Assembly: GCA_045635825.1 (NCBI GenBank)
Contig: JAZTWM010000001.1
Location: forward strand, 52,358-116,357
Origin: Candidatus Enterousia sp.
GTDB lineage: Bacteria > Pseudomonadota > Alphaproteobacteria > Rs-D84
DNA: 64,000 bases
Direction of reading: 5' to 3'
Within the stretch, counting starts at the first letter, position 1. Each line of letters begins with the position of its first letter. The notes under the pieces are model-generated. The model was not told the DNA's origin. It searched no databases and was given only the letters and a program-made list of their open reading frames with translations. The translations under genes were made by a program, and so were the position numbers. This document shows, one piece after another, positions 2,261-3,880 of this stretch.

Positions 2261-3880
2261 TTATCGCTTTAATTTTGCCAGCAATTTTTGTGCCACAGAA
2301 TATCGCGTATTATTATCAGATATCTTGCTTTCAAAAACATGACGCATGCGTGGGTGTATCCAATGTGTGCCGTCTGTGCGTACGCGGTCGCGCATTTGTG
2401 CATATGTTGGTGATTCTACGTTTGGCACCATTCCACCCAGCCCTATCCATCCATGTGCGTTATAACAGTGTAAGAATGGACATTTATTGCATGCGGGTTT
2501 ATGTGGCAATTTTTTATCTTGGAACACATTCCCGATATGACCACAGGACGAACATCTGAATATATTGCCATCCGCAATATTTACAGAATACCCCCAATCG
2601 CCAACATAGCAAAAATCATGTATCTTTTTACCCCACATTTGACTTTTAAATTGGAATAAATCTGAATCAAATTGTTCCCAAATTTTATTGTATTTATCAA
2701 CAGAATACTTGGTCAAACGTTCAAACTGATTATTTTCATCACGTGCAACGGTAATATGCGGCAACGCACCAAAGCGTTCCATAGAAAACCGTTTTATTTC
2801 ATCAATCTCAGGCACCAGTTCATCATGTGGTGTAATTTCTACTGTAAAACTGATTCCCGCATTCCAACACATGTTTACATTGTCTGCAAATTGTTCCAGC
2901 AATCCCAATCGCTTTAATTCCATCCAATGAAATGAACATTTTAAAAACAGTCTTTCGCGCCATTCTGCAGGCAATTCACAAAATTCCTGTAAAACCTTGG
3001 TCTGGGTCATATTTGTTACAACCATAACAAAATGTCCCGCCCCCAGTATTGCCTTAATATGTTCTACATTTTGTGGCAGAATCAATGTCTCCCCATTCGC
3101 ACAGAAAATCATAATGGCGGTTCCACCCAGTCGTTTCTTGGACAGTGCGTTTGCCATTTGTTCTGGGGTGTATTCAAATTTTTGCACTCTGGCTCGTTCC
3201 ACATCAGTGCAATGCTGACCTACATAACAATATTGACATCTAAAATTACATGGCCACGTTGGTACAGCCATTTCTACATATTTTACGATTTTATCATCAA
3301 ATGTTGTGCATTCGGTCATCTTTTGTGCCTCCATTGCGAACTTATTATTTTTTATTCCATTCCCATTACCACTTCGTGCCATTTTGAAATACTTTTTTGC
3401 ACATTCAATAACATCCTGGTTGTGTTTCCAGTACGGGTATGCCACGCAGTTAAAATGATTGGGTGCCAATTGCTTTAATTCGTTTGGTACCTGCATTTCT
3501 TGTATCTGTTGTTTTGCATTACACTGCATCAGGTCTGGGTGTGTTTTTGTATGCCATTCAATAAATCCGCCTGATTTAATGATTTTTGCGATATCTGTTT
3601 CATTTATTGCCCAATCTTTACCAATCCAATCACCGATAACAAACACATGAAACGGCAGATTATACCTTTTTAATATCGGCAACGCATTCAAGACATCTTT
3701 ATATCCATCATCAAATGTCAACACTATCTGTTTTTCATCATCTGGATCATAGTCCAGCATGTTAACCACAAGATATTTATTTTCTATCAAGTATCGAATA
3801 TGTTGCCTGAATGTGTCAACAGATACGGTGTTTTCATCGTTTGATTTGTGTCTGGCGATGTGGTGGTAAACTAAAATCAT
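2261..3880 (-). CDS. fusion protein: N-terminal polysaccharide deacetylase (NodB-like) + C-terminal radical SAM with SPASM/twitch-like Cys cluster
   Basis: TFDDGYKD NodB motif. CNFRCQYC is a CxxxCxxC radical SAM motif. C-terminal CSSCGHIGN..CNKCPFLHC is an auxiliary Cys cluster. Confidence 0.6.
   Translation of the reverse strand: MILVYHHIARHKSNDENTVSVDTFRQHIRYLIENKYLVVNMLDYDPDDEKQIVLTFDDGYKDVLNALPILKRYNLPFHVFVIGDWIGKDWAINETDIAKIIKSGGFIEWHTKTHPDLMQCNAKQQIQEMQVPNELKQLAPNHFNCVAYPYWKHNQDVIECAKKYFKMARSGNGNGIKNNKFAMEAQKMTECTTFDDKIVKYVEMAVPTWPCNFRCQYCYVGQHCTDVERARVQKFEYTPEQMANALSKKRLGGTAIMIFCANGETLILPQNVEHIKAILGAGHFVMVVTNMTQTKVLQEFCELPAEWRERLFLKCSFHWMELKRLGLLEQFADNVNMCWNAGISFTVEITPHDELVPEIDEIKRFSMERFGALPHITVARDENNQFERLTKYSVDKYNKIWEQFDSDLFQFKSQMWGKKIHDFCYVGDWGYSVNIADGNIFRCSSCGHIGNVFQDKKLPHKPACNKCPFLHCYNAHGWIGLGGMVPNVESPTYAQMRDRVRTDGTHWIHPRMRHVFESKISDNNTRYSVAQKLLAKLKR

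Follow-up and report, generated by a model that had tools for sequence, protein, structure and literature searches.

A deacetylase–radical SAM fusion protein closing a glycosyltransferase–pyruvyltransferase operon in a gut alphaproteobacterium

The DNA considered here, called the window, is a stretch of 64,000 nucleotides from Candidatus Enterousia sp. (assembly GCA_045635825.1, contig JAZTWM010000001.1), and its host is an uncultured gut alphaproteobacterium. Near its start, at 2261..3880 on the minus strand, lies a 539-aa gene that begins with ATG, has no internal stops and combines a carbohydrate esterase family 4 (CE4) deacetylase, a radical S-adenosylmethionine (SAM) core and a twitch-like domain. 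The initial annotation had described the same single open reading frame but omitted its strand. Three closely spaced genes run in the same direction here, and the fusion gene is the last of them. The first encodes a 368-aa GT2 glycosyltransferase (5836..6942, minus strand) with three YLFxLIPxxxIK repeats at its C-terminus, and the second a 650-aa protein (3880..5832, minus strand) that joins a GT2 domain (aa 5-170) to a WbbZ-like PF04230 pyruvyltransferase domain (aa 400-619). A gap of 3 nt separates the first two genes, and the ATG of the fusion gene overlaps the stop codon before it (TAATG). With a GT2 and a GT2-pyruvyltransferase gene upstream, the glycan operon that had been proposed as the setting is borne out.

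The fusion protein falls into three parts. The NodB-type CE4 deacetylase domain spans residues 1-190 (3311..3880, minus strand) and holds the catalytic set H6, D57, D58, H110, H114 and R169. The radical SAM core follows at residues 195-420 (2621..3298, minus strand), with its CX3CX2C motif at C211/C215/C218 (nt 3227-3250) and an invariant G263-E264 pair. The twitch-like C-terminal domain occupies residues 421-539 (2264..2620, minus strand), its conserved Cys and His residues being encoded at nt 2453-2611. A Pfam scan of the protein placed PF01522 (Polysacc_deac_1) at aa 46-163 with 70.2 bits (cut-off 23.1) and PF04055 (Radical_SAM) at aa 211-303 with 36.8 bits (cut-off 29.5). Both domains named in the initial annotation, the N-terminal deacetylase and the C-terminal radical SAM core at CNFRCQYC, thus score above their cut-offs. 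The short motifs map to residues 55-59 (TFDDG), 211-218 (CNFRCQYC), 443-448 (CSSCGH) and 464-472 (CNKCPFLHC).

Relatives with the same architecture are found well beyond this genome. A search of 5.8 billion proteins returned about 25 clusters with both Pfam domains over their full length, at 40-96% identity, together with hundreds of stand-alone radical SAM homologues of about 365 aa. The fusion architecture is present in 23 clusters of an alignment designated A2, again at 40-96% identity and from several phyla. An in-frame open reading frame of 539 codons also occurs, at 96% identity, in an independent metagenome-assembled genome, Alphaproteobacteria bacterium SIG50 (L010; L-numbers denote fetched genomic loci holding relatives, and P-numbers family representative proteins). 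Against this copy, the ratio of nonsynonymous to synonymous substitution rates (dN/dS) comes to 0.17 for the whole gene, with 0.14 in the radical SAM half; the value of 0.45 for the deacetylase half rests on 12 substitutions only. An AlphaFold model built with 116 sequences has a mean predicted local distance difference test score (pLDDT) of 93.6 and a predicted template modelling score of 0.76, and its linker is ordered, with a block pLDDT of 77-89. An exact-sequence look-up of the 539-aa protein matched no record. The independent copy, the 23 clusters sharing the architecture, the dN/dS of 0.17 and the confidently modelled linker argue that the fusion is no artefact. Judged from these comparisons, it is genuine, with both catalytic domains intact and under purifying selection, and the frameshift or sequencing error that had been considered at the outset finds no counterpart in the in-frame L010 copy, the 23 clusters or the dN/dS. 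The earlier description of the architecture as unusual holds in part: it is rare within the radical SAM family, but it is recurrent and has arisen in both domain orders.

The deacetylase half passes the Pfam threshold and shows the deformed (beta/alpha) barrel fold. Conservation was counted in the 116 sequences of alignment A2, with CE4 residues scored in its 24 fused sequences. There, H6 and H114 are kept in 24/24, H110 in 23/24, and D57 and D58 in 22/24 each. By analogy with the motif order of PgaB-type enzymes, H6 would be the catalytic acid. No signal peptide was found in the 539-aa protein, whose N-terminus is the first strand of the CE4 fold. PgaB, IcaB, PplD and BA0330-type CE4 enzymes are secreted proteins or lipoproteins that act outside the cytoplasm, whereas the CE4 domain in the window lacks a signal peptide and shares its polypeptide with a cytoplasmic radical SAM enzyme. 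Its scores against the PgaB and IcaB equivalog models are also far below the cut-offs (TIGR03938, 46.3 versus 321.9 bits; TIGR03933, 23.6 versus 248 bits), and no pgaC/icaA neighbour was found around the gene.

The radical SAM half passes the Pfam gathering threshold and has the partial TIM-barrel fold, and all 116 homologues keep C211/C215/C218 and G263-E264 unchanged. The initial annotation had pointed to a second Cys cluster reminiscent of SPASM or twitch domains. In the alignment, C424, G438 and C443 are conserved in 116/116 sequences, C467, C472 and H476 in 115/116, and H471 in 114/116. A CX9-15GX4C motif across a beta-hairpin directly after the radical SAM core is the signature of SPASM/twitch domains. 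The arrangement C424-x13-G438-x4-C443 conforms to this signature and, in the structure model, brackets a predicted beta-hairpin with strands at 430-434 and 439-441. The SPASM models PF13186 and TIGR04085 were absent among Pfam and NCBIfam matches at E <= 1. A SPASM domain proper has a seven-Cys pattern for two auxiliary clusters, against the four conserved C-terminal Cys here. Twitch domains are truncated SPASM domains with one cluster (PMC9012708). Four conserved Cys residues and the missing SPASM match therefore point to a predicted twitch-type domain with one auxiliary Fe-S site rather than a SPASM domain. The earlier suggestion thus survives in its twitch form and not in its SPASM form, and two of the residues it had flagged, C446 (17/116) and C464 (20/116), are not conserved, its ligands having been chosen by eye.

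Known enzymes give limited guidance to the chemistry. The nearest structural neighbours of the model are BlsE, SkfB, anSME and MoaA, with BlsE the closest solved fold at 10% identity. A sequence search of the Protein Data Bank (PDB) with the radical SAM half alone returned nothing significant. No curated NCBIfam family covering this half was found; the best match, STM4011 (NF038073, aa 211-473), scored 43.1 bits against a cut-off of 200. Methylation, one of the radical steps first suggested, is unlikely because no cobalamin domain was matched in the Pfam scan, whose matches were Radical_SAM and CE4 only; epimerisation and C-C bond formation, the other two suggestions, are still candidates. Within the radical SAM family, further extensions without a Pfam match are common, about 125 aa long at the N-terminus in about 25 representatives and 120-160 aa long at the C-terminus in about 35; P0140, P0146, P0126, P0134 and about 55 other representatives carry such extensions.

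The gene immediately upstream gives the clearest indication of the pathway. Its PF04230 domain scores 67 bits (cut-off 25.3) and matches Klebsiella WbbZ (PDB 6x1l) with E 2.6e-31 and 37% identity. WbbZ is a proven phosphoenolpyruvate (PEP)-dependent enzyme that adds a terminal 3,4-pyruvate ketal to the O1 antigen and so ends polymerisation by WbbY (PMC10629545). The NxGD, Rxxx(S/T) and His motifs that define WbbZ-type pyruvyltransferases (PMC10629545) are kept in the upstream gene as N400xGD403, R489xxxS493 and H602.

This partnership extends across the radical SAM family. In six of six context look-ups with a radical SAM-family query, the gene directly preceding the radical SAM gene contained a PF04230 domain. 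A census with iterated hidden Markov models over all fetched loci found a PF04230 match above 200 bits within 2.5 kb of the radical SAM gene in 28 of the 29 loci with a full-length family member; tblastn alone missed divergent copies such as that in L007. An unbiased scan of species-representative genomes gave a pyruvyltransferase in 20/20 loci, 19 of them within 2.5 kb, and these loci span Bacteroides, Prevotella, Ruminococcus, Lachnospiraceae, Treponema, Synergistaceae, Spirochaetales, Gastranaerophilales and Alphaproteobacteria. One locus (L025) carries two pyruvyltransferase-radical SAM pairs in tandem. A HMMER search of 1.84 billion cluster representatives yielded 243 family matches at E <= 1e-30, and among 147 new top-list representatives 26 are direct fusions, 24 with the radical SAM domain before the pyruvyltransferase and 2 in the reverse order. 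Other fusion partners of the family are GT2 and GT-D, and one 1305-aa member combines radical SAM, ferredoxin, FrhB-like and PS_pyruv_trans domains. Fusion in both orders and near-universal adjacency are strong evidence that the radical SAM enzyme and the pyruvyltransferase act in one pathway. On this genomic evidence, the constant associate of the radical SAM family is the pyruvyltransferase, and the deacetylase is an optional third activity. The two-step tailoring first proposed, deacetylation followed by a radical step, is possible, but it is not the best-supported coupling, given CE4 in 2/20 loci against pyruvyltransferase in 20/20. Literature on this radical SAM family, on its pairing with pyruvyltransferases or on the CE4 fusion was not found in a search that left most subscription journals outside.

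The deacetylase is an occasional yet repeated companion. In the unbiased scan CE4 occurs in 2 of 20 loci, and among the HMMER matches two 50%-identity clusters carry it as an N-terminal fusion. Among the fetched loci, CE4 is fused to the N-terminus of the radical SAM domain in the window, L001 and L004 and to its C-terminus in P0040/L003; it forms a translationally coupled downstream gene in L046 and L048 and a separate gene in L006. In L049, a more distant relative (38% identity) is surrounded by other glycosyltransferases, and a radical SAM gene is absent. Locus L019 was considered as a second reverse-order fusion and rejected, since it holds two adjacent genes, of which the CE4 gene is split. 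Two of these loci contain further enzymes. The glycan cluster of L003, which carries the reverse-order fusion, includes at 4959-7825 a glycyl-radical enzyme (PFL-like plus Gly_radical) with its activase, which is unusual for a polysaccharide locus. At 637-7567 of L046, genes for a pyruvyltransferase, two distinct radical SAM proteins (one of which matches SPASM faintly), three methyltransferases and CE4 follow one another, and this cluster looks like an elaborated version of the module.

Signals around the operon fit a short transcription unit of three genes. A promoter-like site, TTGACA-17-TAAGAT (6978..7006, minus strand), lies 36 nt 5' of the ATG of the first GT2 gene and agrees with the consensus at 10/12 positions, a consensus match only; just upstream of it is a terminator-like hairpin (7023-7044). 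At the other end, between the convergent fusion and Mtd_N genes, a perfect 13-bp GC-rich hairpin with U-tracts on both strands (2234..2262) is likely a bidirectional intrinsic terminator. It was recognised by direct folding (dG -22.8 and -23.2 kcal/mol, z -4.6 and -5.4), and the promoter/terminator scan did not report it. The GC content of the cassette is 0.38, against 0.414 for the whole window. As for phase variation, no homopolymer tracts of 7-8 or more were found in the cassette, and candidate invertible-promoter repeats were not convincing. At the C-terminus of the first GT2 (5836-5990, minus strand), the three tandem repeats are about 18 aa long and follow the pattern YLF(D/N)LIP(V/L)(C/L)(R/K)IK. 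Several fused CE4-radical SAM homologues end in a basic/aromatic tail, HSLWWHI(K/R)xxKF; the repeats and tails may both be membrane-association motifs.

On the other side of the hairpin, a phage remnant of about 2 kb (28..2234, plus strand) comprises a T7-type portal gene, two small open reading frames and a gene for an Mtd_N tail-fibre-like protein. This block is syntenic with the cassette in the related gut alphaproteobacterial genomes L010 (7647-10712) and L023 (7123-9305), with intact open reading frames and about 77% nucleotide identity, and an Mtd_N gene also adjoins the cassette in L008 and L009. Beyond the portal in L010 and L023 there is only a terminase fragment and then bacterial DnaB; in L010, the fragment is a terminase nuclease piece of 289 aa, and the phage-like block, bounded by DnaB, measures about 4 kb. 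The block may be a domesticated remnant or part of a system resembling a gene transfer agent (GTA). Comparison of deposited phages with the window gave tRNA matches only, plus one fragment of 32% identity over the radical SAM half. Most of the window is bacterial chromosome, with frr-uppS-cdsA-rseP-bamA and genes for RNase E/G, tryptophanyl-tRNA synthetase, RecG, GroEL, FtsH, PNPase and RNase J. These core bacterial genes rule out the reading of the window as a large phage genome, which its portal, Mtd_N, lysozyme, lysyl-tRNA synthetase (LysRS) and tRNA genes had raised.

Several observations concern the neighbouring chromosome. Amid housekeeping genes and tRNAs, a minus-strand gene at 12050-13189 encodes a 379-aa protein that unites a Mu-F-like minor head segment with a phage lysozyme domain and weakly matches the Bartonella GTA endolysin BgtA. 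The first GT2 gene abuts the RNase E/G gene and an LPG-synthase-like gene in L010 and L023, whereas about 21 kb lie between them in the window (6943-28310), holding tRNA-Leu, tRNA-Gly, LysRS, the lysozyme-MuF fusion, tRNA-His, tRNA-Ala, frr-uppS-cdsA-rseP-bamA and more. Judging by gene order, this stretch is a rearrangement or insertion relative to the close relatives. Directly 3' of bamA is a gene for a VirB8-like protein (21803-22561, plus strand); in Alphaproteobacteria, lpxD-fabZ-lpxA is expected downstream of bamA.

The cassette itself varies between close relatives. In L023, flanking genes are 80-89% identical to those of the window, whereas the radical SAM gene is only 39% identical, stands alone and lacks CE4. 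The other most divergent gene in this comparison encodes the Mtd_N tail-fibre-like protein, at 56% identity and with a hypervariable C-terminus. Between the L010 cassette (2939-7620) and window 2261-6942, synonymous divergence rises steeply, from 0.04 (CE4 part) through 0.20 (radical SAM part) and 0.32 (GT2-pyruvyltransferase gene) to 2.0 (first GT2 gene). Because divergence climbs along the operon and the radical SAM gene of L023 has been swapped, the locus is a recombination mosaic, and we infer that this reflects diversification of a surface antigen or phage receptor.

The closest parallel among known systems is the wbbY-wbbZ locus of Klebsiella pneumoniae O1. Like the cassette in the window, it is small and laterally mobile and pairs a glycosyltransferase with a PF04230 PEP-dependent pyruvyltransferase. 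Both are associated with phages: wbbYZ is a laterally transferred add-on locus with a functional copy on a phage genome (PMC10629545), and the window cassette abuts the phage remnant. The Klebsiella locus has no radical SAM or deacetylase gene, whereas in the window glycosyltransferase and pyruvyltransferase are fused and the CE4-radical SAM protein is translationally coupled to them. By this analogy, the cassette resembles a wbbYZ-type module for extending and capping a glycan, with a radical SAM step and a deacetylase added.

Radical SAM enzymes acting on sugars or nucleotides offer further comparisons. The twitch-domain enzymes BtrN, DesII and SpeY, which act on sugars or cyclitols, and MoaA have a radical SAM core and, behind it, a C-terminal domain with a single auxiliary Fe-S site, a layout that they share with the fusion protein, where the site is predicted. 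In BtrN the cluster is fully ligated (PMC9012708), and the fusion protein likewise has four conserved Cys, together with the CX9-15GX4C-type motif about a beta-hairpin. BlsE, a cytosylglucuronate decarboxylase (PDB 7vob; PMC3715490), works in nucleoside antibiotic biosynthesis without a pyruvyltransferase partner. No sequence homology of the window protein to BlsE/MilG was detected, and its membership in a BlsE-type family is unsupported. The octosyl acid pathway of PolA/NikO and PolH (PMC5365060) follows the same logic, a PEP-dependent three-carbon transfer to a sugar hydroxyl and then a radical SAM transformation. Its transferase is of the MurA type, its substrate is a nucleotide and PolH is not among the structural neighbours, so the likeness is a mechanistic analogy and not homology.

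Taken with the operon, these comparisons make it reasonably probable that the fusion protein is a cytoplasmic bifunctional glycan-tailoring enzyme, ending a self-contained three-gene add-on operon that extends and caps a cell-surface polysaccharide. The target would most likely be an O-antigen- or capsule-type chain built on a lipid carrier at the inner membrane face. The GT2 domains would add sugars, and the WbbZ-like domain would pyruvylate the terminal sugar with a group drawn from PEP, either by forming a ketal or through an enolpyruvyl intermediate. The radical SAM domain would then take a hydrogen atom from the pyruvylated sugar or from the substituent itself, while the predicted fully Cys-ligated auxiliary [4Fe-4S] cluster would handle the electron, as proposed for BtrN. 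The product might be an altered three-carbon substituent (two-carbon after decarboxylation) or a bridged sugar.

Candidate chemistries come from enzymes already described. BlsE decarboxylates a sugar carboxylate (PMC3715490), and a comparable loss of the pyruvate carboxylate may occur here. BtrN oxidises a ring carbon with a fully ligated auxiliary cluster proposed for electron transfer (PMC9012708), and PolH acts on 3'-enolpyruvyl-UMP with C-C bond formation (PMC5365060); ring-carbon oxidation and C-C bond formation onto the enolpyruvyl group are thus the other analogies. The CE4 domain would remove an acetyl group, probably the N-acetyl of an N-acetylhexosamine, from the same lipid-linked intermediate, with O-deacetylation as the alternative, leaving a free amine beside the acidic substituent. 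Taken together, these steps would alter a surface epitope or phage receptor. All steps would take place at the cytoplasmic membrane face, with GT2 and WbbZ-type enzymes acting before export. The lack of a signal peptide, together with the need of a radical SAM domain for SAM and a low-potential reductant, points to this location.

Several observations weigh against this assignment. What is proposed for substrate, reaction order and chemistry is drawn entirely from gene context. A profile of the 116 sequences detects no solved enzyme in the PDB (best E 0.11; BlsE E 0.54), and BlsE, the best structural neighbour, is only 10% identical. The grouping of the four auxiliary Cys draws on conservation rather than model coordinates and so stays provisional. 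Four of the 24 fused homologues are substituted in the CE4 Asp-Asp or His motifs, and CE4 may therefore be non-catalytic in some lineages. In L019, an isolated radical SAM gene lies beside a decayed CE4 gene, and the nearest pyruvyltransferase is 4.3 kb off in an unrelated context. Pyruvylation itself needs no radical SAM partner, because Klebsiella WbbZ works without one.

Other explanations of the operon are less probable. The radical SAM and CE4 domains could instead build an unusual nucleotide-sugar donor that a GT2 then transfers, for example by de-N-acetylation of UDP-GlcNAc followed by a radical step like those of DesII or BlsE on nucleotide-linked sugars, and the pyruvyltransferase would be a mere pathway neighbour. 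This is unlikely: what invariably accompanies the radical SAM module, as neighbour or as fusion partner, is the pyruvyltransferase rather than a glycosyltransferase or nucleotidyltransferase; WbbZ-family pyruvyltransferases act on assembled glycan acceptors; and the minimal cassettes of the window, L008 and L048 have no nucleotide-sugar genes.

Slightly less probable again is that CE4 and radical SAM act independently at different positions of the polymer, their fusion serving co-expression or co-localisation in a membrane-associated assembly complex. Such an arrangement overlaps the glycan-tailoring assignment favoured here and differs only in the coupling of the two steps. It would fit the scarcity of CE4 among family members, most of which lack it, and the fusion of the radical SAM domain to many glycan enzymes (GT2, GT-D and pyruvyltransferase), as assembly-line scaffolding predicts. 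Against it, one and the same CE4 subfamily became linked to the radical SAM gene through at least three independent arrangements, by N-terminal fusion, by C-terminal fusion and as an overlapping downstream gene, which argues for a specific functional link between CE4 and radical SAM.

A role in anti-phage defence or phage counter-defence, for instance as a viperin-like producer of modified nucleotides, is highly improbable. The gene adjoins the portal and tail-fibre remnant and gives weak viperin matches (PADLOC pVip, 30.8 bits; NCBIfam viperin NF038283, 28 bits), but these are confined to about 83 residues (aa 210-292) within the generic radical SAM core, at 28 bits against a 180-bit cut-off. 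The family lies in glycan loci in 28/29 cases, with no kinase or other defence partner present. The chance that the fusion is two genes joined by a frameshift, assembly or sequencing error is negligible: split radical SAM-then-CE4 gene pairs do occur in other genomes (L046, L048, L019), but their gene order is opposite to the domain order of the window, quite apart from the independent copy, the clusters reaching down to 40% identity, the modelled linker and the low dN/dS set out above.

Radical SAM tailoring of sugars is known mainly from antibiotic pathways, and a literature search that left out most subscription journals found no description of radical SAM enzymes for the pyruvylated cell-surface polysaccharides of commensals. 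The radical SAM family of the window counts no fewer than 243 clusters at 50% identity (E <= 1e-30), hosted by Bacteroides, Prevotella, Lachnospiraceae, Ruminococcus, Treponema, Synergistaceae, Melainabacteria, Elusimicrobia and gut Alphaproteobacteria; cultivable carriers include Bacteroides bouchesdurhonensis (L013) and Clostridium cibarium (L007). Being linked in genomes to a biochemically defined enzyme, the WbbZ-type pyruvyltransferase, the family offers a concrete substrate hypothesis, which makes the chemistry directly testable. It could also inform the annotation of thousands of genes now called simply "radical SAM protein".

In Klebsiella, pyruvate caps govern O-antigen chain termination and antibody epitopes, and a radical step that follows capping could therefore matter for glycan immunology and for recognition between gut phages and their hosts. 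It is conceivable, although we hold this broader proposal more tentatively than the assignment of the fusion protein, that the pyruvyltransferase-radical SAM pair carries out an undescribed, widespread radical modification of PEP-derived substituents on surface glycans, with the CE4 fusion as a variant that unmasks an amine. If so, gut and rumen anaerobes of many phyla would make a new sugar structure, such as a decarboxylated, oxidised or carbon-bridged pyruvate ketal, and gut commensals would display previously unrecognised epitopes and phage receptors.

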